A stretch of 64,000 nucleotides of DNA, taken from positions 5,836 through 69,835 of the forward strand of contig JALFIR010000017.1 of assembly GCA_022776215.1 (NCBI GenBank). Reading direction: 5' to 3'. This document shows, one piece after another, positions 1-15,327 of this stretch (position 1 is its first letter; each line of letters begins with the position of its first letter). Under the pieces are notes generated by a model that was not told where the DNA came from, searched no databases, and was given only the letters and a program-made list of their open reading frames with translations. Position numbers and translations under genes: made by a program. The DNA is from Solobacterium sp. Its GTDB lineage: Bacteria > Bacillota_I > Bacilli_A > Erysipelotrichales > Erysipelotrichaceae.

Positions 1-312
1 AGAAGAAAAAAGGTTACTGCTGATAATGTAGAGTATTATTTAGGTCTAAGCGAATGCAACTTTGAAGAGGCTTTAGCTAGTGAGCCTGATATGAGTTCAA
101 TTGCTCATTCTGTGGTTCTTGTAAAGGCAAAGAGTGCAAGTGATATTGATGCGCTTAAGAAAGAAATTTCTGAGAACTTAAATCCTAATAAATGGATTTG
201 TGTGGGAGTTGAAGAAATCAAAATGGCATCACATGATAACATCTTACTTGTCGTAATGGATGATGAAGTTGGCGATAAGATGATTGAGAATTTTAATAAT
301 TTAAGTAAGTAA
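1..312 (+). CDS. DUF4358-like protein, C-terminal part (5' end outside window)
   Basis: Frame 1 is open from nt 1 to the TAA at 310-312. The tail VVLVKAKSASDIDALKKEI...LLVVMDDE resembles DUF4358 proteins, which commonly sit beside MBOAT/DHHW pairs in clostridial-type genomes. Confidence 0.5.
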   Translation, partial: RRKKVTADNVEYYLGLSECNFEEALASEPDMSSIAHSVVLVKAKSASDIDALKKEISENLNPNKWICVGVEEIKMASHDNILLVVMDDEVGDKMIENFNNLSK

Positions 313-353
313 GGGTCTTCGAAAGAAGCCTTTTCTTTTGGTACAATGACAAT

Positions 354-1694
354 ATGATATTCTCAAGCGTTAGTTTCTTATTTTATTTCTTTCCTATCGT
401 ACTTATACTTTATTTTTTAAGTCCTAGGAAATATCGTAATTTAATATTGTTTATAAGTAGTTTGTTCTTTTATTTTGTAGGAGAGAAACAATATACATTG
501 ATTCTATTGTTTTCATGTGTTTTTAATTTTTTTTATTCGAAAAGGATTAAGGATAAAAAGACTTTATGGTTTGGTGTAATAGTCAATTTATCTTTGTTGA
601 TATATTTTAAATATACTAATTTCATTGTGAATGATGTATTAGGTTTTAATAATTTAGTAAATATTGTTTTGCCTATTGGTATATCATTCTTTACTTTCCA
701 GGCAATCAGTTATTTGATTGATGTATATAGGGGTGATGTAAAGGCTAGTAAGTCATTTATTAACTTTGGCACTTACTTAACTTTCTTTCCACAACTTATC
801 GCAGGTCCTATCGTAAGATATGAGACTGTTAATGAGGAATTGATTGATAGAAAAGAAAATGTTGATGATGCGAGTAGGGGTATAACCCGTTTTTGTGTAG
901 GTCTATTTAAGAAGGTAGTAATCGCAGATACTTTAGGAAGTATAGTAAAACTATTAAGTGCTATTAAGGTACGCTCTAGTTTATCTTATTTCTTGGAAAT
1001 GATTAGTGCTACGATGCAGTTATATTATGATTTTAGTGCCTATAGTGATATGGCTATTGGTATGGCTTTGATATTTGGTTTTCATTTCTTAGAGAATTTT
1101 AATTATCCATTAGTAGCTACATCAGTTAAAGATTTCTGGCGTAGATGGCATATTTCTTTGTCGTCTTTCTTAAAAGATTATATTTATATTCCCTTAGGTG
1201 GTAGTAGATGTTCTAATTCAAGATATATCTTTAATTTGTTTGTAGTATGGTTTTTAACCGGTTTCTGGCATGGTGGGGACTATAACTTTATTCTTTGGGG
1301 CTTGTATTTTGGCTTAGTTTTAATAATTGAAAAGTTTGTGTTCAAGGGTTTCTTTGATAGACATAAGATAATTGGTTTTGTGTATACAACTTTGATTGTG
1401 AATATATCTTTTGTGATTTTTAATCATTCTAATCTTTTGGATATTAAAAATTTCATAGTTGGACTATTTAACTTAAAATATCTAGTTGATAAGGAAACCT
1501 TATTCTATTTAAAGAACTATGTGGCGTTCTTTGCTGTGTGTATCGTTGGTATTACGCCATTATGTAAAAATATTTATTCTAGGTTAAAGAATAAGGATTT
1601 AGTTAATATAGTATTGGTAATCTTATTATTACTTATATCGACTGCATATATTATTGATGCGACTTTTATGCCGTTCTTATATTTTAGGTTTTAG
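354..1694 (+). CDS. MBOAT family O-acyltransferase (AlgI/DltB-like)
   Basis: Polytopic 446-aa ORF with the MBOAT signature FWRRWHISLSSFLKDYIYIPLGGSR and FWHG. The N-terminus MIFSSVSFLFYF is typical of the family. Confidence 0.9.
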   Translation: MIFSSVSFLFYFFPIVLILYFLSPRKYRNLILFISSLFFYFVGEKQYTLILLFSCVFNFFYSKRIKDKKTLWFGVIVNLSLLIYFKYTNFIVNDVLGFNNLVNIVLPIGISFFTFQAISYLIDVYRGDVKASKSFINFGTYLTFFPQLIAGPIVRYETVNEELIDRKENVDDASRGITRFCVGLFKKVVIADTLGSIVKLLSAIKVRSSLSYFLEMISATMQLYYDFSAYSDMAIGMALIFGFHFLENFNYPLVATSVKDFWRRWHISLSSFLKDYIYIPLGGSRCSNSRYIFNLFVVWFLTGFWHGGDYNFILWGLYFGLVLIIEKFVFKGFFDRHKIIGFVYTTLIVNISFVIFNHSNLLDIKNFIVGLFNLKYLVDKETLFYLKNYVAFFAVCIVGITPLCKNIYSRLKNKDLVNIVLVILLLLISTAYIIDATFMPFLYFRF

Positions 1695-1697
1695 TTT

Positions 1698-2723
1698 ATG
1701 AAAAAGTTATTGATTATTATATTTGTATCTTTTATTAGCTTATTTGGTTTTATAAGTCTTTTTAATAAGGAAGAAATATCAATTTATGAAAGAAGGAAGT
1801 TAAAGGCTTTTCCTAAAATAATAGACAACAATAATTTCTTTGATGATTTAGATAAGTACTTAAGTGATCATTTTATTTTTAGACAAGATTTCAGGGAAGT
1901 TAAGGGTTTTGTGAACTATAATCTTTTTAATATTTCGATTAATAATAAGGTGACTATTAAGGATGATTACTTGTTTGAGTTGACAGAGACTAATTATAAG
2001 TCTTTGGATAATATTGTGGCTAAGGTGGATGAAATTATTACAAGGTTTGAAATTAATGACTATGAATTTATAGCTATTCCTTTAAAGAATCATTATGCTG
2101 GTTTGGATAATGTGAGTGAAGAGATTGATGAGTATCTTAGTGTAAAAATAGATAATTATCACTCATTGAAAGATTTGTTGTCATTATCAGATTATTATCG
2201 TACTGATATTCATCTTAAACAGGAAAGACTTGGTAGTGTTGTTAGTAAGATACTAGAGTTGTGTGATGTAGAAGAAAAAGATATAGAGTATTCATTTAAT
2301 ACATATGATAAGTTCTATGGTTCTTTATATGCCAAGATGGCTATAAGTATGAAGCCTGATACGATTACATATTTGACTAATGATTTGTTGAATGGCGTGA
2401 AGGTAGAAAGTGTTGAAGATAAAGACTTATTGGATGTCTATAATGTGTCAGAACTTGAATCGCTTGATCCATATAGTATTTATTTAAATGGTCCTAAGGC
2501 TTATTTAAAGATTGTGAATAAGAATGTAAAGAATAGAAAACTGATTATTTTTAGAGATTCATATACATCTAGTATTGCGCCATTGTTGGTTCCTTATTTT
2601 AGTGAAATAGAATTAATTGATCTAAGATATTACAGTAGTGATTTGCTTAATATTGATGGTGATCCTAAAGTTTTATTCATATTTGGAAGTGAAGTGTTAA
2701 ATAATTCGTTTAGTATTAAATAA
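1698..2723 (+). CDS. DHHW/AlgX-AlgJ-like partner protein of the MBOAT acyltransferase (signal-anchored)
   Basis: Starts 3 nt after the MBOAT gene and has an N-terminal TM anchor. YYRTDIHL sits where the family carries TDHHW. The C-terminal FRDSYTSS is SGNH-like. Confidence 0.6.
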   Translation: MKKLLIIIFVSFISLFGFISLFNKEEISIYERRKLKAFPKIIDNNNFFDDLDKYLSDHFIFRQDFREVKGFVNYNLFNISINNKVTIKDDYLFELTETNYKSLDNIVAKVDEIITRFEINDYEFIAIPLKNHYAGLDNVSEEIDEYLSVKIDNYHSLKDLLSLSDYYRTDIHLKQERLGSVVSKILELCDVEEKDIEYSFNTYDKFYGSLYAKMAISMKPDTITYLTNDLLNGVKVESVEDKDLLDVYNVSELESLDPYSIYLNGPKAYLKIVNKNVKNRKLIIFRDSYTSSIAPLLVPYFSEIELIDLRYYSSDLLNIDGDPKVLFIFGSEVLNNSFSIK

Positions 2724-2878
2724 TATATTGATTTTTTTGACTATAATGGTATGATATTTTTGTTCATTAGTTCTTTTTTAGCTTTATATTAAGGCTTTTG
2801 GGAAATGATAGGTATGCCCATCTATTTTGATGGGCTTTATTTATTTGGTGGACAGAAAATTAGGAGGAGATTTTTCAA

Positions 2879-3457
2879 ATGGAAAAACAAAGTGTTGGTA
2901 AGATTCTTCTTGGTAAGTGGGATACTAAGACAATTGTTGGTGTTGCAATTGGTGTTGCATTGTTTGGTGTCTTAATGGACTATGCTTCTATTAAGGTTTT
3001 CACAAACACAAACTTAACTTTAGCTATGATTGTTCCTGTTATCGTTGGTGGACTATTTGGACCTCTACCTGCAGCCTTAGCTTGTGGTTTAGGTAACTGT
3101 TTAGCTGACTTAATCGGTGGCTGGGGCATGTGGTTTGACTGGTCAATCGGTAATGCTTTCTTAGGCTTCTGTGTTGGTTGTTTAAAGTTATATGGTGCTG
3201 ATATCGAAAACGGTAAGTTTGATGCTAAGCAAATGATTATCTATGTAATCGTTGCGGTTGTTGGTAATGCCTTAGCATTTGGTGTTGTTACACCTATTTT
3301 CTCTGCATTGTTATATCAATCAGAATTAACTATTACTTTCATTCAATCTTTAACAGGTGGTATTTCTAATACAATCGTACTTGTTGTTGCTGGTATTCCT
3401 ATTCTTAAGGCATTAGCTGCAAGAAACGCAAAAGCTACAAACCTAACTAAAGAATAA
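2879..3457 (+). CDS. ECF transporter substrate-specific (S) component, substrate unknown
   Basis: 192-aa Gly-rich protein with about 6 TM segments and a strong SD (AGGAGGAG). It lies immediately upstream of dedicated ECF A-A' and T genes (group I arrangement). Confidence 0.7.
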   Translation: MEKQSVGKILLGKWDTKTIVGVAIGVALFGVLMDYASIKVFTNTNLTLAMIVPVIVGGLFGPLPAALACGLGNCLADLIGGWGMWFDWSIGNAFLGFCVGCLKLYGADIENGKFDAKQMIIYVIVAVVGNALAFGVVTPIFSALLYQSELTITFIQSLTGGISNTIVLVVAGIPILKALAARNAKATNLTKE

Positions 3458-3459
3458 TT

Positions 3460-5175
3460 ATGTTAAAAGAGCCTATAATTGAGTTCAAGGATTTTAGTTT
3501 TCGTTATAAATCTCAAAACGAAGCTACTTTAAAGAATATCAATTTAACTATCTATAAGGGAGAGAAGGTATTATTACTAGGTCCTTCTGGTTGTGGTAAG
3601 TCAACTCTTGCTAACTGTATCAATGGAATTATTCCATTCTCTTTTAATGGTGAAATAAAGGGTTCATGTAAAATTGCTGGAGTAGAGTCATCTACTTCCA
3701 GCATTTTTAAATTAAGTTCGGTTGTTGGAACAGTATTACAAGATTCTGATGCCCAGTTTGTTGGTTTGTCGGTGGGCGAAGATATCGCATATGCTTTAGA
3801 AAATAATATGGTTCCAAGAAACGTGATGCTTAAGAAAGTTAAGGATGCGGCTACTATTGTTCATATGGAAGATTTCTTAGAGTCTGTTCCATATAATCTT
3901 TCTGGTGGTCAGAAACAAAGAGTTTCTCTTGCTGGTATCATGCATGATGATGTCCAAATTTTGTTGTTTGATGAGCCTCTAGCTGCGCTAGATCCTCAAA
4001 TGGGTAATCAAGCTATCGCTTTAATTGATGAGATTCAAAAGGAAAATGAGAAGACAGTGTTAATTATCGAGCATCGTTTAGAAGATGTTTTATATAGACC
4101 TGTTGATCGTATTATTTTGATGTGTGATGGTGAGATTATCGCCGATACTACTCCTGATAAATTATTATGTAGTGAAAAGCTTAGAAAAGATGGTATTAGA
4201 GAGCCACTTTATCTAAGTGCTTTGAATATGGCTTCTTGCAAGTTTAGTGAAGAAGATCATCCAAGTGATATCTTCTCTATGAATCTTGATAAGTATAAAG
4301 ATAAACTAGTTTCTTATTTTACTAGTGTTAAGACTAGTAATGTGAAAAAGAGCGATGAATGCTTACTAGAAGTAAAGAATGTTTCTTATAAGTATAAGAA
4401 TCGTAATGTGAAGGTTCTTGATGATGTATCTTTTAAGGTCTATAAGGGCGAGAAGATTGCGATTGTTGGTAAAAATGGTGCTGGTAAGTCTACTATCGCT
4501 AAGATGTTGTGTGGGGTTATTAGACCGCTTGAGGGTGAAATACTTTTAAATGGTGAGAATTATTTAAAGTATTCTATTAAGGAAATTGGTCAAAAGATTG
4601 GCTATGTTATGCAAAATCCTAATCAAATGCTTGTTAAGGATATCATTAAAGATGAGGTTTCTTTGGGACTTAGACTAAATGGTTATAGTGAAGAAGAAAT
4701 TGATAAGCGTATTGAAGAGGCTTTAAAGATGTGTAATCTATGGCCTATGCGTAATTGGCCAGTTGGTGTTGTAAGCTATGGTCAAAAGAAGAGAGTTACT
4801 ATCGCTTCTATCTTGGCTATGAAGCCTGAGATTATTGTGCTTGATGAACCTACTGCAGGACAAGATTATAAGGTATATACCGAGATTATGTCATTCTTAG
4901 AGGAATTAAATAGGGACTATGGTATTACTATCTTGTTTATTACTCATGATATGCATCTAGCTATTGAATATACTGATAGGGCTATCGTGTTTGCGGAGGG
5001 TAAGTGTGTTGGTGATGATTCTGTTTATAAGATCTTGTCTAATAATGAGATTATTGAGATGGCTAATCTTAAACAGACTTCACTTTATACTTTGGCAAAG
5101 AAAATTGGTGTTAAGCCAGAACTTATGATTGATTCGTTTATTAGTGAGGAAAGGAGAAGAAGACATGAATCATAG
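3460..5175 (+). CDS. ECF transporter fused double ATPase (EcfA-EcfA')
   Basis: Two Walker A motifs (GPSGCGKST, GKNGAGKST), two signature motifs (LSGGQKQR, VSYGQKKR) and two Walker B motifs (LLFDEP, IVLDEP). Confidence 0.9.
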   Translation: MLKEPIIEFKDFSFRYKSQNEATLKNINLTIYKGEKVLLLGPSGCGKSTLANCINGIIPFSFNGEIKGSCKIAGVESSTSSIFKLSSVVGTVLQDSDAQFVGLSVGEDIAYALENNMVPRNVMLKKVKDAATIVHMEDFLESVPYNLSGGQKQRVSLAGIMHDDVQILLFDEPLAALDPQMGNQAIALIDEIQKENEKTVLIIEHRLEDVLYRPVDRIILMCDGEIIADTTPDKLLCSEKLRKDGIREPLYLSALNMASCKFSEEDHPSDIFSMNLDKYKDKLVSYFTSVKTSNVKKSDECLLEVKNVSYKYKNRNVKVLDDVSFKVYKGEKIAIVGKNGAGKSTIAKMLCGVIRPLEGEILLNGENYLKYSIKEIGQKIGYVMQNPNQMLVKDIIKDEVSLGLRLNGYSEEEIDKRIEEALKMCNLWPMRNWPVGVVSYGQKKRVTIASILAMKPEIIVLDEPTAGQDYKVYTEIMSFLEELNRDYGITILFITHDMHLAIEYTDRAIVFAEGKCVGDDSVYKILSNNEIIEMANLKQTSLYTLAKKIGVKPELMIDSFISEERRRRHES

Positions 5176-6013
5176 TGATATTATTAATCTTACTCCTGGT
5201 TCGACTTTTCTTCATCGTTTGACAGGTACTACTAAGGTTAGACTTTTTATTGTGTTAATTGTTTATGTAATGATGTCTTTTGATTTCCGTTTGATTGCAC
5301 CATTATTTGTGATTGCACTAATTGGTCTAATTTCACTTAAACCTAAGTGGAAGACTTTGAAGGTTATCATTATCATTGTTGTGTTGATGAATGTCTTTAA
5401 TATCTTCTTGTTCTGGTTGGCTGATCCTCATTATGGTTTATCACTAACTAATGATGATACAGTCTTGTTTGCGTTTAATAGTTATCTAGTGGTTACAAGG
5501 GGTACTTTATGGTATCTAGGGGTTAGACTTTTGAAGATGCTTACTTCTTTCTTGGTTTCAATGTGTTTTATTATTTCAATTACACCAAGTGAGATGGCTG
5601 CTGGTTTGACTTCTATTGGTCTTCCTTATAAGTTTGGCTCTATTGTTGAGATTGCCTTTAGATATATTCCTGATATTTCTAGAGACTATGAGAATATCTC
5701 TATCTCTATGCAATGTAGAGGCCTAGAACTAGACAAGAAGAAGGCTTCTCCGTTTGAGCGTTTGAAACAAACCGTTATGATTTTGATTCCTTTGGTTATC
5801 ACATCTTTTGATAGAGTTAATGATATCGCCAATGCGATGGATTTAAGAGGTTTTGGTAAGCTCAAGAAGAGAACTTATTATGCTGAGCATGAGATTATTA
5901 AGGGCGAGAAGATTTTTATTGCCTTCTATCTTATTGTGTTTGCGTTTGTAATTTTCTATTCTATTTATTCTAGAGTAGTTACTTTCCCTACTAAGATGTG
6001 GATTTATTGGTAA
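5165..6013 (+). CDS. ECF transporter transmembrane (T) component
   Basis: TM protein with two EcfT-type coupling motifs (MQCRGL, MDLRGF). The start was trimmed to the ATG preceded by AGGAGAAGAAGAC, and the gene overlaps the ATPase gene by 11 nt. Confidence 0.85.
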   Translation: MNHSDIINLTPGSTFLHRLTGTTKVRLFIVLIVYVMMSFDFRLIAPLFVIALIGLISLKPKWKTLKVIIIIVVLMNVFNIFLFWLADPHYGLSLTNDDTVLFAFNSYLVVTRGTLWYLGVRLLKMLTSFLVSMCFIISITPSEMAAGLTSIGLPYKFGSIVEIAFRYIPDISRDYENISISMQCRGLELDKKKASPFERLKQTVMILIPLVITSFDRVNDIANAMDLRGFGKLKKRTYYAEHEIIKGEKIFIAFYLIVFAFVIFYSIYSRVVTFPTKMWIYW

Positions 6014-6017
6014 TTAT

Positions 6018-7355
6018 ATGGATTATAAGAAAATATTTGATGATAATCTTGAAACTTTAAGGTCTTTATTGAAGATTAATTCTATTTATGATGAGAAGAC
6101 TGTAGATGATTTGCATCCTTATGGAAAGGGTTGTAAAGAAGCTTTGGATTTCATGAAGGACTTAGCGATTAAAGATGGTTTTATAGTTAAGGATTATGAT
6201 AATAAGGCTATATCTATCAGTTATGTAGATAATGAAGATGAAAGAATTGATGTAGTTAGTCACTTGGATGTTGTCAGCGTTGATGATAAGTGGTCATATG
6301 ATCCTTTTGGTGCTGTGATTAAAGATGGTAAACTTTATGGTCGTGGTAGCGAAGATATGAAGACTGCTGCTTTCTTGTCTTATCTATGTTTAAAGGAATT
6401 AAGAAATAAGTATCCTGATGTAAAAAGAGAGATTAGGGTAGTATTCGGTAGCGATGAAGAGCGTACGATGGATGATATGCGTCATTATTGTTCAGTGGTT
6501 AAGAAACCATTGTTTGCGTTTTCGCCTGATGGCACTTTCCCTATGGTTATTGGTGAAAAGGGTGCTTTGATGTGGACAATAAGTAGCGATTATGATGGTG
6601 TTATCGAGTCGCTTGATGGTGGTATCCAGTGCAATGTAGTGCCTCCTTATGTTAACTGTGCTCTTAAGGATGATAGGTATACTGAAAAGTTAAGAGAGTA
6701 TTTCTTAGATAAGAAGGCAAATGTAACTAGTGTTAATGGTAAGACTGTTATTCATGTAGATGGTGTGGCAGTGCATTGCTCAAGATGTTTTGATGGTGTT
6801 AATGCGATTAATGTCTTGTTGAAGGGTTTAGCTGAGATTTGTGAAGATGAATTGTGTAAGAATCTTTATGATATCTTGGGCGAGAACTATGGTGCCGGAT
6901 TAGATTCTAAGATTGATGAGGTGTTTGATACTTGTTTGACTGTTAACTTGGGCCGTTTAATTATTAAGGATGGTAAGATTAATGGCCAGGTTGATGCAAG
7001 ATATCCTGCTACTTTAACAAGCGCTGAGTTGACTAAGAAATTTAAAGAAAAAGCTATGTTTAATGTTTCTTTGGATTATGATGATCCTCCAACTTTGAAT
7101 AGTTTGGATGATCCTTATATCAAGGAAATGTTAGATGTTTATGATGGTGTTATGCATGATGGTTTAAAGCCTTATGTGTCAGGCGGTGTATCTTATTCTA
7201 AGGTGTTTAAGCATTGTGTAACCTTTGGTATGAATATGCCTAATAAAGAAAACTTAGCTCATCAGGTTGATGAATATGTAAAGCTTGATGATTGTGTCAA
7301 GGCTTTAGAAATTTATTACAAGACTTTTGAAAGATTTATTGAAATGGAGATTTAA
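6018..7355 (+). CDS. M20 family dipeptidase (PepV/Sapep-like)
   Basis: HLDVV, GRGSEDMK and GSDEE metal and catalytic motifs; length 445 aa. Confidence 0.85.
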   Translation: MDYKKIFDDNLETLRSLLKINSIYDEKTVDDLHPYGKGCKEALDFMKDLAIKDGFIVKDYDNKAISISYVDNEDERIDVVSHLDVVSVDDKWSYDPFGAVIKDGKLYGRGSEDMKTAAFLSYLCLKELRNKYPDVKREIRVVFGSDEERTMDDMRHYCSVVKKPLFAFSPDGTFPMVIGEKGALMWTISSDYDGVIESLDGGIQCNVVPPYVNCALKDDRYTEKLREYFLDKKANVTSVNGKTVIHVDGVAVHCSRCFDGVNAINVLLKGLAEICEDELCKNLYDILGENYGAGLDSKIDEVFDTCLTVNLGRLIIKDGKINGQVDARYPATLTSAELTKKFKEKAMFNVSLDYDDPPTLNSLDDPYIKEMLDVYDGVMHDGLKPYVSGGVSYSKVFKHCVTFGMNMPNKENLAHQVDEYVKLDDCVKALEIYYKTFERFIEMEI

Positions 7356-7358
7356 TTT

Positions 7359-8204
7359 ATGAAGAAGATGTTGGTGTTCCAAACGGACTTCACTTATGCA
7401 GAAGGTGCTGTACCTTCAATGTTGGGAGTTGTTAAGAACGTTGATTTAGATATAGAGTGTATTACAGCTACACATCAAATTCCTCAATATGATACTTATT
7501 CTGCATCATTCAGATTGTATCAATATATTGATTTCTGGCCAAAGGGCACTATTTTTGTGTCTGTTGTTGATCCAGGCGTTGGTACGGCTAGAAGAGCTTG
7601 TGTTGCCAAGACTAAGAACGGTTATTTCATCGTTACTCCTGATAATGGTACTTTGACTCATGTTTATAACAAATGGGGTATTGAGGAAGTAAGAGAAATC
7701 GATGAGACTGTGAATAGACTTCATCGTGATGATAATGGTTATGTTTCTATTTTCCATGGTCGTGATTTATTTGGCTATTGTGCAGCTAAGTTAGCTAGTG
7801 GCAAGATTAGTTTTGAGGAAGTTGGTCCTACTTATCCGGTTGAAGAGATTGTTAGACATGATTTGCATAAGGCGCAAATTGTTGATGGTAAATTAGAGGG
7901 TACTTTTGAGATTAATGATCCTAACTTTGGCAATCTTTGGACTAATATCCCATTGGATTTATTTAAGGAAATGGGTTTTAAGATGGGTGATAGCGTTAAG
8001 ACTACTATTTATTTAAATGATGAGGTAGTTTATAGTTGGAATCTTCCTTATTATGATTCATTCGGTAAGGCTCCTGCTAAGTCTATTATGATTTATAACA
8101 ATGAATTAAATAATATGGCTTTAGCTGAGGTAGTTGGTAATTTATGTAAGAATTATGATTTAGATTTTAGAAAGGGTTATAAGTTGGTATTTGAACATGA
8201 ATAA
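7359..8204 (+). CDS. SAM hydrolase / SAM hydroxide adenosyltransferase family protein (DUF62), paralog 1
   Basis: FQTDF, VVDPGVG, TPDNGTLTH and FHGRD motifs. Confidence 0.85.
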   Translation: MKKMLVFQTDFTYAEGAVPSMLGVVKNVDLDIECITATHQIPQYDTYSASFRLYQYIDFWPKGTIFVSVVDPGVGTARRACVAKTKNGYFIVTPDNGTLTHVYNKWGIEEVREIDETVNRLHRDDNGYVSIFHGRDLFGYCAAKLASGKISFEEVGPTYPVEEIVRHDLHKAQIVDGKLEGTFEINDPNFGNLWTNIPLDLFKEMGFKMGDSVKTTIYLNDEVVYSWNLPYYDSFGKAPAKSIMIYNNELNNMALAEVVGNLCKNYDLDFRKGYKLVFEHE

Positions 8205-9039
8205 TTTATTAGTATTTCAAACAGATTTCGGTTTAGATGATGGCGCAATTAGTGCTATGGAAGGTGTTTCTTTTGGTGTTTCTCAAAGTTTGAATATTCG
8301 TCATTTGACTCATAATATTCCTCAATATAACATCTTTGACGCTTCTTATAGACTTTTCCAAGCTATCGGATACTGGCCAGAGGGTACAGTGTTTGTATCA
8401 GTTGTTGACCCAGGTGTTGGCAGTGCTCGTAAGTCAGTTGTAGCGAAGACTAAGACTGGTCAATATATCGTTACTCCAGATAATGGTACTTTGACTCATA
8501 TTAATAAGTTTGTTGGTATTGAGGAAGTAAGAGAGATTGAAGAAAGAGTTAATCGTTTAAAGAACTCTGAATTATCTTATACTTTCCATGGTCGTGATGT
8601 TTATGCTTATACTGGTGCTAGACTTGCTTCTAATACTATCGATATGGAAGGTGTTGGTCCAAAGCTTAATGTTGAGGATGTTGTTGAATTAGAACTATAT
8701 GGTTGCAAAGAGATTGAAAATGGTGTTAAGGGTCAAATTGATATCCTTGATGTTCGTTTTGGTTCATTATGGACTTCTATTCCTTATGAAGAATTCAAGA
8801 AGTGTGGATTTAAGTTTGGTGATAATGTCCTAGTAAAGATTTATAACAGAGATGTTTGTGTTTATACAAATACAATCAACTATGGCAAGTCTTTTGCGGA
8901 TGTACCAATTTCAACTCCTATTATTTATATGAACTCTTCTTATCATATCGCTGTTGCGATTAACCAAGGTTCATTCGCCAAGGCTTATAATATTGGTGTT
9001 GGTAGTGATTGGAAGATCACTATGCAAAAGAGTATTTAA
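8191..9039 (+). CDS. SAM hydrolase / SAM hydroxide adenosyltransferase family protein (DUF62), paralog 2
   Basis: FQTDFG, VVDPGVG, TPDNGTLTH and FHGRD motifs. Overlaps paralog 1 by 14 nt. Confidence 0.85.
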   Translation: MNMNNLLVFQTDFGLDDGAISAMEGVSFGVSQSLNIRHLTHNIPQYNIFDASYRLFQAIGYWPEGTVFVSVVDPGVGSARKSVVAKTKTGQYIVTPDNGTLTHINKFVGIEEVREIEERVNRLKNSELSYTFHGRDVYAYTGARLASNTIDMEGVGPKLNVEDVVELELYGCKEIENGVKGQIDILDVRFGSLWTSIPYEEFKKCGFKFGDNVLVKIYNRDVCVYTNTINYGKSFADVPISTPIIYMNSSYHIAVAINQGSFAKAYNIGVGSDWKITMQKSI

Positions 9040-9068
9040 TTAATACTGTTAGTTAATTAAATTGAATC

Positions 9069-9099
9069 GGTTGTCTATGTAATATGGGCAACCTTTTTT
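9069..9099 (+). terminator. Intrinsic terminator after the ECF-peptidase-DUF62 operon
   Basis: GGTTGTC (9069-9075) pairs with GGCAACC (9087-9093), including one G-U pair, with an 11-nt loop, followed by TTTTTT (9094-9099). Confidence 0.7.
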
Positions 9100-9201
9100 A
9101 TCCACTTTTCCACATTGACAATGGCAAAAATATGGGAATATGTTGGGAATAAAAGTTCATGTTCCCTTTCTATAATCACCTTACAAGCGAGGTATAAAGA
9201 T

Positions 9202-9842
9202 ATGGAAAATGAAGTTATAGTATTTAAAAATGGAGAATTGGAATTGGAGGTATCATTGAATGAAGATAAAGATACGGTTTGGCTTAATAGACATCAAATG
9301 GCCAAACTATTTGATAGGGATATCAAAACCATTAATAAACATATCAATAAGGCGTTAGAGGAAGAATTGTCTGATGAAGTGGTTGTCGCAAAATTTGCGA
9401 CAACCACTCAACATGGAGCTATAAAAGAAAAACAACAAACTCATATGGTTGAATATTTCAATTTAGATGTAATCATCTCTGTAGGCTATTGTGTTAAATC
9501 ACCTAATGGTATTATCTTTAGAAAATGGGCAACCTCAATTCTTAAGGATTATATGGTTAAGGGCTATGCAATTAATAAGAAAAGACTAGATGCTTTAAAT
9601 AAAACCATAGAAATACAATCAAGGATGTTGTTGTAGATACTAAGGAAGTATTAAGTGTAATAGAAACATATTCTAATGCACTGTCTTTATTAGATGATTA
9701 TGATCATGGAACACTTAGTAAGCCTAAAGGTAAAGAGTCAATCTATGAATTAACATATAAGGAATGTAGAGACTAAATTGATTTAATGAAATTTAATTCA
9801 AGTGTCTTTGGAATAGAAAAAACCTACAAATACTTGGTTTAA
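9202..9842 (+). pseudogene. RhuM/Fic-DOC family gene, N-terminal part, frameshifted and truncated
   Basis: MENEVIVFKNGELELEV...VVAKFATTTQHG...YFNLDVIISVGYCVKS is RhuM-like. The frame breaks near 9620-9636 and continues in another frame (DTKEVLSVIETYSNALSLLDDYDHG...), with stops at 9774 and 9840. Confidence 0.7.
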
Positions 9843-9984
9843 TTGCCTTATTAAAAATATGTCCCTAAAAATATAAGGTATAAACTTTTAAAGACACACT
9901 TTCAGCTTTTATTTATAAGTTTTTTTCATATAATGCATTAAACATTAATATCAACTATGTTTATCCATGGCATATGTAAATAAT

Positions 9985-10434
9985 CTATGTAGAAAGTACA
10001 TATTTTTCCATTAGGGCAATAAATACGGTTGCCGTCATAATAATGATTAACGAAAAAGGGATAAACAAAACATTAAAATATTTTACTTGTTCAATAAAGA
10101 TGCCACCAATAAATACAATGACTACTAATACTGTTATAACAATCAATTCCTTTTTTAATTCATGTATTTTGTTTTTTAAAATGGCAATTCCATCAGCACT
10201 TGTTTTGGCCTTATTTATAAATGAAATTGTGAAATATATGATTATTGCTAAGCCTAGTAAATCTGAGACTATATAAAATACAAAATTATTAAAAAGTTCA
10301 AAGAATCCTACTTCGATATTTACAAGATCATGCCATAGTTCGCTTTTAAAAAACATTCCCGTTAAAAAGATTGACATTATAAAAACGATGCTAGTAATAA
10401 AAATACTTAAATATATTTTTTTGGTATTTATCAT
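9985..10434 (-). CDS. Hypothetical membrane protein (about 4 TM) inside the insertion that splits the RhuM/Doc gene
   Basis: 149-aa hydrophobic ORF with a GGGAG about 12 nt upstream of the ATG. No recognisable family. Confidence 0.45.
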   Translation of the reverse strand: MINTKKIYLSIFITSIVFIMSIFLTGMFFKSELWHDLVNIEVGFFELFNNFVFYIVSDLLGLAIIIYFTISFINKAKTSADGIAILKNKIHELKKELIVITVLVVIVFIGGIFIEQVKYFNVLFIPFSLIIIMTATVFIALMEKYVLST

Positions 10435-10534
10435 AATTCACAAACTCCCAATTCTTCATAATTATTTGTACAAACCTTATCAATAGTAACTCTACAAGCA
10501 ATCCATACACCAGCTTTACATATTAGTGCTGCTA

Positions 10535-10569
10535 CAAAAAATAGTTCAATTTAAAATTAAATTGAACTA
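10535..10569 (-). terminator. Minus-strand intrinsic terminator-like hairpin
   Basis: Perfect 12-bp arms TAGTTCAATTTA (10542-10553) and TAAATTGAACTA (10558-10569) with a 4-nt loop. On the minus strand the hairpin is followed by a T-run (A-run 10535-10541 on plus). Confidence 0.5.
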
Positions 10570-10759
10570 CAATAAAATACCGGTCTTATGCCTTGAAACA
10601 TAGTAATAATGCACGTTAATAAATCGCAAACTCTTCATACTTCATTATAATCATAAAGGCCAAAAAAATAAAATCTTTTAAGTATTCTCTTTTTAAAATG
10701 ATACCCAAGTAGTGGGCTTCACTCAGACAGTGAATCTACCCACTAACTGTGTATTTTTT

Positions 10760-10978
10760 ATGAAAAAGGCATATACTGAACAAGAGATAAAAATATTGAG
10801 CGAAAACCCCAATGTTAAAAATGTAAGAAGGAACAGATTGGGTTTAACTTTGGAATTTAGACAGAAGTTATATGACGAATGGGTTAAAGTCCCTAGAATC
10901 GGAACCATCAGAAAATTTTTAAATGAGAATGGTGTTGATACAAGAATGACCAAAAAATCTTTTATATTTCATTATTAA
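10760..10978 (+). mobile_element. IS-type transposase OrfA (HTH) N-terminal fragment, no catalytic part
   Basis: MKKAYTEQEIKILSENPNVKNVRRNRLGLTLEFRQKLYDEWVK resembles the HTH OrfA of IS3-like elements of Bacillota. It ends after 72 aa, directly abutting the resumed Fic/Doc fragment. An imperfect hairpin lies at 10710-10745. Confidence 0.5.
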
Positions 10979-10979
10979 G

Positions 10980-11183
10980 GATCATCCTTTTGCGGATGGT
11001 TGTAAAAGAATTGGTGCTTCTTTATTCTTAGAGTTTCTTAATAAGAATAAACACTTAATCATTGATGGTAAACAAATTATTTCTAATAATGCATTAGTAG
11101 CTATTACTTTAATGATTGCAGAATCAAGACAAGAAGAGAAGGATGTGATGGTTAAGTTAGTTATGAATTTTTTGAGATATTAA
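10980..11183 (+). pseudogene. C-terminal Fic/DOC-fold fragment of the disrupted RhuM-family gene
   Basis: Translates as DHPFADGCKRIGASLFLEFL... (a Doc-type HxFxDGxKR motif). There is no start codon and it begins 1 nt after the IS fragment. Confidence 0.65.
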
Positions 11184-11464
11184 AAACGTAAATTATTATG
11201 GTGTTTAGGAGATATTTCAACTGTCACAAAATTTGCGACAGTTGAAATCTTAAGGACATTTAAACCGTTAAAAGTGGTTGTTACATTTTTTGCAACAACC
11301 TCTTTAGTAGTTCTCAACAGTTAAGGTTTTGACATTATTCCCAATAGCGACACGCAAAAAATGTGTCTTGCTTTAAGAATGTTATGTTTACTGAAAAGGA
11401 ATATGCAAAATTTGCACGTTGCAATTTTTTAGTACGCTCATTTTTTTAGCATACTAAAAAAGAG

Positions 11465-12811
11465 CTAACAACTAGTAGCTCCTTGTAGGTTAGGCGTAAT
11501 CATATATGATTTACCGTGTTTCTTGTATAGATAAGTAGATACAAACATTGTAGTTAGTTCTGCAAGTGGCATTGTTAACCAAACACCAGTAACACCCATG
11601 AATATAGGCAGTACTAGGATATAAATAACTACAAGTATTAATGATCTAAGTGTTGATACAATGGCTGATAATAGGCCATTACCTAGGGCTGTGAAGTAGC
11701 CTGAGATAAAGACATTGAAGCCAATGAATAAGAATATTGGGTTAAATATCTTTAGGCCATACCATGTTATGTCAAATACATGTCCGTTTTCTACGAAGAT
11801 ATGAATGATGTCTTTACCAAAGATGTATGAGATGGCAGTAACTAGTATTGCGGTAATAATAATTGTTATAAAGCTATATCTAGTTGTTTCATTGATTTTG
11901 TCATAGTCTTTAGAACCAATGTTATAGCTAACGATTGGTGCTGCACCTACTGCGATTCCCATGTAGAAGGAAATAAAGAAGTAGTAGATGTTCATAATGA
12001 TGGTTACAGCAGCTACACCATCTTCTTGGAAATATTTAAAAATTATAATATTGAATAAGAATGTAGTGATGCCAGTTGATAGTTCCGTTAACATTTCACT
12101 ACTACCGTTGGTGCATGATTTAAGTAAAACATTCCAATCTATCTTGGGTTTGGTGAATTTAATGTTACTAAATTTAAGGAAATATACTAATCCTATAAGC
12201 ATGCTTATTGAGATTGAAGATAGGGTGCCAAATGCTGCACCTATGGTTCCTAAATTGAATATGGCAACTAATATATAATCGAATACCACATTTAAGACAA
12301 GACCAATAGATGACATAATCATACCAATGTCTGATCTGCCATCGGTTCTTACAAGATATTCAAAGAATAGTTTAAAGGACATAGGTATGCTTCCTAAGAA
12401 TATTACTAGGGCATATGGTAGTACGTGTACTAATAGTTTTTCACTACTTCCAAGGAAGATACAAATGGGTTTTAAAAATACGATACCAAAGATTGTGAAT
12501 AGTGTAGATAACAACAATAGTACGATGTTGATGAAGGTGAAGATTTCGTTGGCTTCTTGTTGTTTCTTTTGACCAAGTTTTTCACCTATAATAGCTCCAG
12601 ATCCTGTTGCTAACATGACGGATGTTCCAAAGATTATACAGGTTATTGGGATTACGATGTTGATGCCAGCTAGAGCATCTGAGCTAACGTATTTGGATAC
12701 AAAGAAACCATCGATGGCAGTATAGAATGATAAGAATATCATTGTTAGTACCGAGGGTACTAGGTATTTTAGAAATTGAGGGTAGCTCATTTTATTTTCA
12801 AAACAGTTCAT
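11465..12811 (-). CDS. MATE family efflux transporter
   Basis: About 12 TM segments with a typical MATE N-terminus (FLKYLVPSVLTMIF...). The start was trimmed to MNCFENK, preceded by GGAGAAAAT. Confidence 0.9.
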   Translation of the reverse strand: MNCFENKMSYPQFLKYLVPSVLTMIFLSFYTAIDGFFVSKYVSSDALAGINIVIPITCIIFGTSVMLATGSGAIIGEKLGQKKQQEANEIFTFINIVLLLLSTLFTIFGIVFLKPICIFLGSSEKLLVHVLPYALVIFLGSIPMSFKLFFEYLVRTDGRSDIGMIMSSIGLVLNVVFDYILVAIFNLGTIGAAFGTLSSISISMLIGLVYFLKFSNIKFTKPKIDWNVLLKSCTNGSSEMLTELSTGITTFLFNIIIFKYFQEDGVAAVTIIMNIYYFFISFYMGIAVGAAPIVSYNIGSKDYDKINETTRYSFITIIITAILVTAISYIFGKDIIHIFVENGHVFDITWYGLKIFNPIFLFIGFNVFISGYFTALGNGLLSAIVSTLRSLILVVIYILVLPIFMGVTGVWLTMPLAELTTMFVSTYLYKKHGKSYMITPNLQGATSC

Positions 12812-13004
12812 ATTTTCTCCTGATTTAACAATATCTAATACTAAACTATATAGTAGGTATATAGTCAAGAAGTTTTTTAAAAAAATGTGTTGTCAACACC
12901 TAAAATGATGAAACTATATTTAATGAAAATCCTATTCATAATTTTGTTTACAATTTTATAAGTTAGCCTATCCTTTTATTGTTTCGGTCATTATAATTGT
13001 AATG

Positions 13005-13024
13005 GTTGAACATTCAACTATAAT
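13005..13024 (+). promoter_or_regulatory. 14-bp palindrome GTTGAACATTCAAC abutting a TATAAT box upstream of nrdD
   Basis: Palindrome at 13005-13018, TATAAT at 13019-13024, SD AGGAG at 13034-13038, ATG at 13048. Nearly the same palindrome recurs at 21449-21462. Confidence 0.55.
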
Positions 13025-13047
13025 CTAAACCATAGGAGAAACTTATT

Positions 13048-15327
13048 ATGAATCAAATAAAAAAGCGTAAGGGCAATTTGGTAGCTTATGACCCTGAGAA
13101 GATAAGAGTAGCTATCACTAGTGCTAATCATGATATTAAGAAGAAGGCTTCTGATGCAGAAATTGAAGTAATCTTTGAGGCGGCTAAAAATGAGGTTGAG
13201 GAGCTTTTAACTAATCATAATGTTTCTGTAGATGAGATTAATGATATCGTTGAAAGAGCGATGATGAAATATGATTGTTACGAATTAGCTAAACAATTTA
13301 TTGAGTATCGTTACCGTCATAAATTAATTAGAGAATCAAATACAACTGATGAATCTATTTTTGAATTGATTAATGGTAAGTCAGAGTATTGGAATGAAGA
13401 GAATTCAAATAAGAATGCAAGACTTGTTACTACACAACGTGACTATATTGCGGGTATTGTGAATACAGATATTGCTAGAAGATTCTTACTACCAAAGGAT
13501 GTGGTTAAGGCTCATGATGAGGGTATCATCCATGAACATGATATGGATTATCTAGCGGATTTCGCAAGGCATAATTGTGAGCTTATCAATCTTGAGGATA
13601 TGCTTCAAAATGGTACTGTTTTAAATGGTGTAATGATTGAAAAGCCACATCGTTTTATTACAGCAAGTACTATTGCAACTCAAATCATGACTGCGGTTAG
13701 CGCTTCTAGTTATGGTGGTTTAACAGTTACCTTGACTCATTTAGCACCTTTTGTAAGATCTAGTTTCTATAGACACTATAAATTTTTTGTGAAGGAAGTT
13801 CTTGGTCAAGAATTGAACGCGTTGATTAACGAAGATACAAGAATGGATAGTGATGTTTATGCATCTATTCCTGCTGCCTTAGATTATGCGACTAAGCAAA
13901 TTAAGAAGGAAGTTGAAGATGGTGTTCAAACTTTCAATTATCAAATTAATTCAATGTCTTCAACCAATGGTCAATCACCTTTCTGTTCAGTATTTATGTA
14001 TCTAAATGAAACTGATGAATATAAAGATGAATTAGCTATGATTATCGAGGAGTTCTTGAAACAAAGAATTCAAGGCTTAAAGAATGAAAAGGGTATTTAT
14101 GTTACCCAAGCTTTCCCTAAGCTTCTTTATGTCTTGGAAGAAGATAATATTACCGAAGGTTCTAGATATTGGTATTTAACAGAATTAAGTGCTAAGTGTT
14201 CTGCTAAGCGTTTAGTTCCAGACTATGTTTCTGAGAAGATGATGAAGAGTCTTAAGATTAATAAGTTTGGTGTTGGAGATTGTTATGGTCCTATGGGCTG
14301 TAGATCTTTCTTAACTCCAGATAGAATTGAGGGTAATCCTGCTAATGCCTTAAATTATGATCCAAATAAGGGTAAGTATTGGGGTAGATTCAATATGGGT
14401 GTATGTACAGTTAATCTATTTGATGCGGCTTTAAGTTCTAATCGTAATGAGGGTGAGTTCTGGAAATTATTAGATGATAGATGTGAATTATGTCATACAG
14501 GTTTGAAGGTTAGAATTAATAGATTAGCTAGTGCTACTAGTGATGTGGCTCCAATATTGTGGCAACATGGTGCTTTGGCAAGACTACAACCTCATGAGAA
14601 GTTGGAAAAGTTAGTATATGGTGGTTATTCTACTGCTTCACTTGGTTATGCAGCTTTATATGAATGTGTTAAGTATATGACAGGCTTGAATCTTACTGAT
14701 AAAGAGGGCGAGGCTTTTGGTATGCGTGTCATGAATTTCTTGAATGATAAGTGTGCTAAGTGGAAAAAGGAAGAGAATATTGATTATTCTGTTTATGGTA
14801 CGCCTCTTGAGACTACTACTTATAAGTTTGCGAAGATGGCTAAGAAGAAGTTTGGCGATGATGTGTTTGTAAAACTTGATGGTCATGATAGAGATTATGT
14901 GACTAATTCAAGTCATACTCCTGTTTTCCAAAATATTGATGCGTTTGATAAGTTGGATATTGATGGTAAGTTCCAAGAATTATCTCCAGGTGGTAATGTA
15001 ATTTATATTGAGACACCTAATCTTCAAAATAATATTGAGGCAATTTTAGAAGTAATCAAATATATGTATGATCATACTATGTATGGTGAATTAAATACTA
15101 AGTCTGATTATTGCATGAATTGTGGTTATGATGGCGAGATTATGGTTGTTGAGGATGAAAAGACTCATAAGCTAGTTTGGGAATGTCCAAATTGTAAGAA
15201 CCGTGACCAAAATAAGATGCAGGTAACAAGACGTACTTGTGGTTATCTAGGTTCTCATTATTGGAATCAGGGTAGAACTGATGAGATAAGATCTAGAGTA
15301 TTGCATCTAGATAATGTATGCGAATAA
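13048..15327 (+). CDS. nrdD: Anaerobic ribonucleoside-triphosphate reductase (class III, E. coli/T4-like type)
   Basis: N-terminal ATP-cone, PMGCRSFL motif, C-terminal Zn ribbon (CMNCGY...CPNCKN) and glycyl-radical motif RRTCGYLGS. Confidence 0.95.
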   Translation: MNQIKKRKGNLVAYDPEKIRVAITSANHDIKKKASDAEIEVIFEAAKNEVEELLTNHNVSVDEINDIVERAMMKYDCYELAKQFIEYRYRHKLIRESNTTDESIFELINGKSEYWNEENSNKNARLVTTQRDYIAGIVNTDIARRFLLPKDVVKAHDEGIIHEHDMDYLADFARHNCELINLEDMLQNGTVLNGVMIEKPHRFITASTIATQIMTAVSASSYGGLTVTLTHLAPFVRSSFYRHYKFFVKEVLGQELNALINEDTRMDSDVYASIPAALDYATKQIKKEVEDGVQTFNYQINSMSSTNGQSPFCSVFMYLNETDEYKDELAMIIEEFLKQRIQGLKNEKGIYVTQAFPKLLYVLEEDNITEGSRYWYLTELSAKCSAKRLVPDYVSEKMMKSLKINKFGVGDCYGPMGCRSFLTPDRIEGNPANALNYDPNKGKYWGRFNMGVCTVNLFDAALSSNRNEGEFWKLLDDRCELCHTGLKVRINRLASATSDVAPILWQHGALARLQPHEKLEKLVYGGYSTASLGYAALYECVKYMTGLNLTDKEGEAFGMRVMNFLNDKCAKWKKEENIDYSVYGTPLETTTYKFAKMAKKKFGDDVFVKLDGHDRDYVTNSSHTPVFQNIDAFDKLDIDGKFQELSPGGNVIYIETPNLQNNIEAILEVIKYMYDHTMYGELNTKSDYCMNCGYDGEIMVVEDEKTHKLVWECPNCKNRDQNKMQVTRRTCGYLGSHYWNQGRTDEIRSRVLHLDNVCE

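Follow-up and report, generated by a model that had tools for sequence, protein, structure and literature searches.

A six-gene operon of Solobacterium sp. encoding an ECF importer and two DUF62 proteins, with a predicted role in the uptake and hydrolysis of SAM-type compounds

Gene content of the operon and its importer

The window described here is a stretch of 64,000 nucleotides from Solobacterium sp. and forms part of contig C3 (JALFIR010000017.1) of an assembly (GCA_022776215.1) with a size of 1.77 Mb and a completeness of 97.9%. Between positions 2879 and 9039 the ORF list of the window contains six open reading frames (ORFs), all on the + strand. They encode, in this order, the S component, the fused A-A' ATPase and the T component of an energy-coupling factor (ECF) importer, an M20 peptidase and two DUF62 proteins. 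The junctions between them are gaps of 2-4 nt or short overlaps, and the operon ends at an intrinsic terminator (9069-9099, + strand) with an 11-pair hairpin (9069-9093) followed by TTTTTT. An original prediction, made from the letters of the DNA, had described six co-directional, nearly gapless genes of these families, followed by this terminator. All six ORFs and the hairpin with its T-run lie where it had placed them, and its family calls agree with the matches to Pfam and NCBIfam models. The six genes are under purifying selection, with dN/dS values of 0.04-0.27 relative to the related loci L016-L018; the value is lowest for the S component and highest for the M20 peptidase.

The substrate-capture (S) component (2879-3457, + strand) is a protein of 192 aa of the UPF0397/PF07155 type, with scores of 113 bits against PF07155 and 135 bits against NF010182 (cutoff 99). 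The ATPase (3460-5175, + strand; 571 aa) is a fusion of EcfA and EcfA' with two ABC_tran domains and a DUF3744 linker, and reaches 429 bits against TIGR04520 (cutoff 315). The transmembrane coupling component EcfT (5165-6013, + strand) belongs to the CbiQ family (PF02361, 82 bits). Its start is likely the ATG at 5165, which follows the ribosome-binding site GAGGAAAGGAG and brings about an overlap with the upstream stop codon; the longest ORF begins at a TTG at 5129. As the S component, both ATPase domains and the T component are encoded together, the importer is of the group I type. It is distinct from the shared EcfAA'T module of the genome. The second, general EcfT of the genome, encoded on contig C81, is 24% identical to the EcfT of the operon, and a housekeeping PepV-like paralog of the M20 peptidase on contig C65 shows 30% identity. 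The distance of both proteins from these housekeeping paralogs argues that the operon copies are private.

PF07155 and NF010182 both carry 'riboflavin' in their names, and the S component resembles RibU in being a small multi-pass protein. Membership in the RibU-type family, found with both models, reflects the family label only. A comparison of the S component with solved structures, RibU included, gave no sequence match, and an Rfam search of positions 1-14000 of the window found no flavin mononucleotide (FMN) element. The single FMN riboswitch of the genome (C24:14392-14504) precedes a different S component of family PF12822 (ORF L092:1615-2208), which is likely RibU. Since this riboswitch controls another S gene, the riboflavin label does not fit the S component of the operon, and riboflavin was rejected as its cargo. 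The operon further differs from RibU systems in that orthologues of its S gene are controlled by S-adenosylmethionine (SAM) or tRNA-Met (see below). Placement of the S component in a family with a known and unrelated substrate had been named beforehand as grounds for abandoning the original prediction; no such placement was found, the riboflavin label being contradicted by the position of the FMN riboswitch.

The genome encodes a further S component of family PF07155 (104 bits) at C34:8478-9008, approximately 4 kb from a gene for a Pfs-like methylthioadenosine/S-adenosylhomocysteine nucleosidase (C34:12833-13498; 60 bits, below the cutoff of its model). This S component may belong to another importer of adenosyl compounds.

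Conservation of the importer, the DUF62 pair and the peptidase

Orthologues of the S component were collected by a pattern scan based on an alignment of S homologues, using one genome per species. The scan gave 166 matches, of which the best 80, with 58-100% identity to the S component of the window, were kept as loci (designated by L numbers). The loci carry the labels Erysipelotrichaceae, Lachnospiraceae, Oscillospiraceae, spirochaetes and others; the nearest ones come from metagenome-assembled genomes (MAGs) of human-gut Erysipelotrichaceae or 'Solobacterium'. ORFs of the loci were labelled with phmmer, and all locus counts below are taken from these HMM-labelled ORF tables.

DUF62 genes lie beside S-AA'-T on the same strand in 72 of the 80 loci; of the eight loci without this arrangement, six are on truncated contigs. 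Among the 44 loci that are fully flanked, each from a different species, 42 contain between one and five co-directional DUF62 genes, which argues that the arrangement is not due to chance. Two copies are present in 27 of the 44 and five is the maximum. The M20 gene is located between the T gene and the DUF62 genes in 25 of the fully flanked loci; in five others an FGase-family amidohydrolase is found instead. When 50 genomes with the module were searched in full, every PF01887 copy above the cutoff was inside the module, except for one broken extra copy; in the genome of the window both DUF62 genes are part of the operon (2/2). More distant S homologues, at 43% and 33% identity, stand alone, with neither DUF62 nor a motor of their own. 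The link between importer and DUF62 is thus near-obligate for this S subfamily. Its conservation in related genomes had been proposed as a check of the original prediction, which came through it well.

Contigs L017, L018, L048 and L061, with S genes of 61-94% identity, bear the label Paratractidigestivibacter, Methanomethylophilaceae archaeon or Bacteroidaceae. These odd labels are most likely due to mis-binning in 'cleanbin' MAGs and not to transfer across domains.

The two DUF62 proteins of the window are 46% identical to each other. The type-a paralog (7359-8204, + strand; 281 aa) scores 145 bits against SAM_HAT_N and 39 bits against SAM_HAT_C, the type-b paralog (8197-9039, + strand) 160 and 71 bits, respectively; both proteins are above the Pfam cutoffs. 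The type-b gene likely starts at the ATG at 8197, which overlaps the type-a stop codon, while its longest ORF starts at a TTG at 8191. The closest solved relative of type b is 2zbu (1e-38). Each of the motifs FQTDF, VVDPGVG, PDNG and FHGRD, which had been read from the translations before, is found in both paralogs. Both retain the Asp in VVDPGVG, an Arg seven positions further on (+7), the His in FHGRD, a ribose-binding Asp and an adenine-binding Asn. This residue pattern, DDRNH, is shared by the two copies of the window and by 134 of the 161 module copies; the roles of the five residues are taken to be those of their counterparts in PH0463 and fluorinase. The only known DUF62 chemistry is the conversion of SAM and water into adenosine and methionine. 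The two paralogs were not recognized by the equivalog models for (R)-SAM hydrolases, with 99-137 bits against NF058624 (cutoff 350) and 85-107 bits against NF053629 (cutoff 470), nor by the fluorinase model TIGR04507 (66-75 bits, cutoff 400).

In a FastTree phylogeny the type-a protein belongs to clade a (31 rows, support 92) and the type-b protein to clade b (55 rows, support 100). Each clade is common to operons of the M20 type and of the FGase type. The two types represent two old clades, which have been kept as a pair across both kinds of operon. The clades have 65 conserved positions in common, and 13 clade-specific positions are grouped in three motifs (counts of clade-specific residues for clade a refer to a wider set of 35 rows). 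The three motifs are presumed to border the pocket on its methionine side, as in fluorinase and SalL. The clade-specific residues suggest non-redundant roles of the paralogs or a hetero-oligomer.

In operons with four to five DUF62 genes (L046, L048, L049, L059, L061, L063, L065 and L082) the second copy has lost the catalytic Asp, Arg or His. These degenerate copies show patterns such as DG-ND, form a long-branched clade of their own and are apparently non-catalytic paralogs.

The M20A metallopeptidase of the operon (6018-7355, + strand; 445 aa) is Sapep/PepV-like. It scores 275 bits against TIGR01887 (Sapep subfamily; cutoff 208) and is not recognized by the PepV equivalogs NF005591 (294 bits, cutoff 435) and TIGR01886 (207 bits, cutoff 632). 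Its metal ligands (His, Asp, Glu-Glu, Asp, His) and the carboxylate-binding Arg (NLRYP) align with those of Sapep (3khx). M20 genes with at least 38% identity to that of the window were present in 25 of the 50 genomes searched in full. In 24 of them the gene is visible in the module locus; in the remaining one the locus ends at the end of a contig, and the M20 gene is found on another contig, beside a DUF62 gene. Where the locus shows no M20 gene (25 genomes), there is only a PepV-like gene of 27-35% identity or none. The operon M20 thus represents a module-exclusive subfamily, a dedicated but lineage-variable member. The candidate explanation that it is a chance neighbour was rejected, as the operon-type M20 is confined to the module in these 50 genomes.

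The FGase-family amidohydrolase (PF05013) takes the place of M20 in 13 other loci. The DUF62 copy number is inversely related to the presence of an amidohydrolase: all 29 loci with an amidohydrolase have one or two DUF62 genes, and 11 of 13 loci with DUF62 but no amidohydrolase have three to five copies; these are raw locus counts that ignore phylogeny.

RNA control and methionine metabolism of the host

Several orthologous operons are preceded by RNA elements that respond to SAM or tRNA-Met. At the position of the leader of the window, directly ahead of the operon, a SAM-I riboswitch is present in the close six-gene relatives L017 (59.5 bits), L019 (57.5 bits) and L090, and weakly in L018. 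SAM-I riboswitches also precede operons that begin with DUF62 and are labelled Oscillospiraceae, namely L055 (80.6 bits), L033, L035 and L036. T-boxes were found before L089 (106 bits) and L029 (85 bits, below the Rfam cutoff); their specifier reads GAA-N-AUG-R in a frame taken from the model alignment. A T-box-controlled metQ-metN-metI operon is located directly upstream of the module in L019, and metQNI also adjoins the module in L090. Rfam detected no SAM or T-box elements in eight further loci, that is the five remaining DUF62-first loci with FGase and three loci with four to five DUF62 genes; RNA control is therefore not universal.

The operon of the window is preceded by a sigma-70-type promoter (2728-2755, + strand) with TTGATT, a 16-nt spacer and a TG-extended TATGAT, which corresponds in alignment to the promoters of L017, L018 and L019, whose leaders bear the riboswitch. 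The leader (2756-2862, + strand) has the character of a SAM-I riboswitch remnant. It has kept the beginning of the P1 5' strand and, from the expression platform, a terminator hairpin (2816-2835) with its T-run, the hairpin being situated immediately before the ribosome-binding site. The fold of the leader is more stable than that of shuffled sequences (z = -4.2). The leader matched no Rfam family at E <= 10 and did not match the purpose-built SAM model R1. An alignment with the leaders of L017 and L019 shows promoter, P1 start and terminator as kept and the aptamer core as deleted. A live S-box in the window was accordingly rejected in favour of a decayed one, and with the aptamer decayed, control of this operon is probably no longer SAM-responsive. 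The leader of L016 has decayed in another way.

A conserved long-range pairing connects positions 2757-2769 and 2846-2858 of the window, with TGTCCA at the 5' end of the leader and TGGACA past the T-run of the terminator. In L017, L018 and L019 this pairing brackets the riboswitch and the terminator; in the window it persists without the aptamer.

No genes for MetE, MetH or LuxS were found in the host genome (97.9% complete), and MetQ/MetI are encoded on contig C38. As judged from its predicted gene content, the host is a methionine auxotroph. Without the three enzymes only a cargo that yields intact methionine would be of use, and homocysteine-type precursors would be useless.

The canonical MetK models TIGR01034 and PF02773 detected nothing in the host genome. 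The possibility that the host is devoid of any SAM synthetase was rejected, because a mini-MetK with the catalytic motifs HPDK, DxGxTxRK and GKDxxKxD is encoded behind a SAM-I riboswitch of 60.4 bits. The stretch with the riboswitch and the gene (C3:4717-5654; L010:1343-2280) ends 182 nt before the first base of the window. The gene lies upstream of the operon at a distance of approximately 3 kb, and the genome has no other MetK homologue. Members of this very large family measure 260 aa, versus about 390 aa for canonical MetK. In L018 a mini-MetK gene lies immediately upstream of the S gene. MetK homologues, in most cases of full (canonical) length, are present in 45 of the 50 module genomes. 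In the lineage of the window, genomes G001, G004, G010 and G011 have the mini-MetK only, and no MetK was found in G005 and G009.

Predicted function, related systems and flanking genes

The control of orthologous operons by SAM-I riboswitches or Met T-boxes makes a SAM-like compound the best-fitting cargo, and together with the methionine auxotrophy of the host it shifts the interpretation to methionine scavenging. Neither this regulation, live in relatives and decayed in the leader of the window, nor the auxotrophy had been part of the original prediction. Judged by homology and context, the operon is, with a probability slightly above even, a system that imports SAM-type adenosyl-sulfonium compounds and hydrolyses them to methionine and adenosine. 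The module as a whole is favoured to a similarly modest degree as a dedicated ECF importer of the methionine/SAM regulon that is genetically locked to SAM hydrolases. The S component would capture an extracellular adenosyl-sulfonium compound, most likely SAM in whatever mixture of sulfonium epimers occurs, and the private A-A'/T module would power the import. The two specialised DUF62 paralogs would then cleave the C5'-S bond to give L-methionine and adenosine. The methionine would supply a cell without methionine synthase, and part of it could be re-adenylated by the mini-MetK under SAM-riboswitch control. The module M20, or elsewhere the FGase-family amidohydrolase or extra DUF62 copies, may process a peptide- or acyl-linked variant or a by-product. 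The original prediction had named a SAM-like or a nucleoside-peptide metabolite as examples of the compound taken up. The first of these gains from the regulation of the orthologues, and nothing points to nucleoside-peptide antibiotics; a stepwise breakdown in which the peptidase takes part, also suggested there, is kept as an inference.

Several observations weigh against this interpretation. In two fully flanked loci, L028 and L086, the importer is present and DUF62 is absent. Many of the loci come from MAG contigs whose taxonomic labels are unreliable, and the species compared are not phylogenetically independent. Sequence does not fix the exact substrate of the DUF62 proteins, whose scores are far below the curated cutoffs for (R)-SAM hydrolases. 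Simple hydrolysis of SAM gives the M20 peptidase no role. In the window itself the aptamer is lost and the terminator hairpin kept, which makes expression uncertain here. Moreover, an S-box switches its operon on when SAM is low, which is awkward for a system that destroys SAM unless the aim is to gain methionine or to remove an inactive epimer.

The last point leads to the (R)-sulfonium form, which is biologically inactive and makes up a large share of aged environmental SAM. The module might be the first system for the uptake of SAM in free-living bacteria, for which SAM would be a scavengeable 'vitamin', with the a/b pair of DUF62 proteins sorting the mixture: usable (S,S)-SAM would be spared, and inactive (R,S)-SAM, or derivatives that are damaged, would be converted to methionine and adenosine. 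This extended proposal is considered unlikely. Somewhat less likely still is that the imported SAM serves directly as a cofactor and that the DUF62 proteins destroy only the inactive (R)-sulfonium form, recycling it to methionine and adenosine. S-box control, which turns the operon on at low SAM, would suit direct use, as would the presence of the mini-MetK only, or of no detectable MetK, in the lineage of the window and the 13 positions in three motifs, presumed to border the pocket on its methionine side, by which the two clades differ. Those DUF62 enzymes that have been characterised are hydrolases specific for (R)-SAM (bioRxiv 10.1101/2025.08.29.672840; NCBIfam names), but the paralogs of the module stay below the equivalog cutoffs of such hydrolases, and stereoselectivity is not readable from the sequence. 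The 45 of 50 module genomes that have a MetK homologue are not those of SAM auxotrophs, and the Met T-boxes of L029 and L089 signal a need for methionine, not for SAM.

Another candidate cargo, in place of SAM itself, is a conjugated or degraded adenosyl or methionine compound, for example an N-acyl or peptide-linked one, which would be cut stepwise by the amidohydrolase (M20 or FGase) and DUF62, in line with the original prediction. The exclusiveness of the operon-type M20 (25 genomes, versus none of the 25 that lack M20 at the locus), the presence of the FGase-family enzyme in its place in 13 loci and the retained metal ligands and free-carboxylate-binding Arg of M20 are consistent with such a cargo. 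The same holds for the copy numbers of DUF62 (one or two in 29/29 loci with an amidohydrolase, three to five in 11/13 without), although this pattern ignores phylogeny. However, 13 of the 44 fully flanked loci manage with DUF62 alone, no gene of the operon evolves faster than M20, and no natural conjugate of the required kind is known to us. A conjugate is given the same low probability as direct use of SAM. Lowest of all is that given to mere co-regulation in a methionine regulon, with the ECF system importing another source of methionine, DUF62 acting on the cell's own SAM (for repair or emergency release of methionine) and M20 freeing methionine from peptides. All three enzyme types could indeed provide methionine independently, genes for a methionine ABC transporter (metQNI) adjoin the module in L019 and L090, and 'methionine precursor' ECF systems have been predicted (TCDB 3.A.1.29, PMC3654945). 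Yet the restriction of DUF62 to the neighbourhood of the importer in 50 genomes is unexpected for a housekeeping repair enzyme, and distant S homologues without a private A-A'/T are also without DUF62. Degrading internal SAM at the low-SAM signal of an S-box would be counter-productive, and homocysteine-type precursors could not serve a host without MetE, MetH and LuxS.

The component families are ordinary, and literature searches found no paper linking DUF62 to an ECF importer and no relevant SAM transporter with ECF; no description of the combination was found. The SAM transporters of the obligate intracellular Rickettsia and Chlamydia and the organelle carriers are secondary transporters of unrelated families, found in organisms without MetK. 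If uptake and hydrolysis of SAM is the correct interpretation, the module would share its cargo with them, but it is an ATP-driven ECF system of free-living gut anaerobes in which the cargo is cleaved. In having S, fused A-A' and T in one operon the module resembles MtsTUV (TCDB 3.A.1.29, 'methionine precursor') and HtsTUV (3.A.1.31, 'Unknown-ABC1'), both listed in PMC3654945 as predictions of comparative genomics whose cargo was never determined. Control by an S-box or a Met T-box, seen for orthologues of the module, is shared with them. The descriptions of both families, which were compared by family names only, mention neither DUF62 nor M20, unlike the module.

With the DUF62 SAM hydroxide adenosyltransferases and (R)-SAM hydrolases the paralogs share the two-domain fold (by HMM), the Asp-Arg-His residues and the adenosine-binding Asp and Asn. 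The reference set is taken to consist of PH0463, MJ1651, 2zbu from T. maritima and the Salinispora enzyme, with the SalL chlorinase and the fluorinase as relatives. The paralogs differ from the known enzymes in their conserved a/b pairing with clade-specific changes, in their equivalog scores below cutoff and in being encoded only beside an importer; the studied archaeal DUF62 enzyme adjoins an NMN (nicotinamide mononucleotide) adenylyltransferase (bioRxiv 10.1101/2025.08.29.672840). Similarly, the M20 peptidase resembles Sapep (S. aureus SACOL1801, 3khx) and PepV (1lfw) in its membership in TIGR01887 and in the conserved metal ligands and Arg, but its subfamily was found only inside the ECF-DUF62 module, and it is only about 30% identical to the housekeeping PepV-like protein of its own genome.

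DUF62 enzymes are widespread and several of their structures are solved, while their cellular job is debated; annotation pipelines mislabel the cargo of the ECF family studied here as 'riboflavin'. The near-obligate link between the two, in a methionine/SAM regulon of auxotrophic gut anaerobes, offers a concrete and cheap test for both families. Were the predicted uptake and hydrolysis of SAM true, SAM would join the metabolites exchanged in gut communities, and thousands of database annotations would be corrected. Uptake of SAM with sorting of its epimers would, if true, explain the purpose of bacterial DUF62 and imply cross-feeding of SAM in gut and rumen communities.

Further genes adjoin the operon on both sides. 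Just past the operon terminator, at 9115-9636, lies an ORF of 173 aa whose match to the RhuM virulence-protein family is limited to the first 69 positions of that family. It has the look of a gene fragment; its counterpart in L012 has 218 aa. Positions 354-2723 of the window encode an MBOAT/DltB-like O-acyltransferase (446 aa) and, after a 3-nt gap, a protein of 341 aa with no match in Pfam or NCBIfam. This pair is also seen in the conspecific loci L012 and L013 (L014 is cut by the end of its contig) and not in other module loci.

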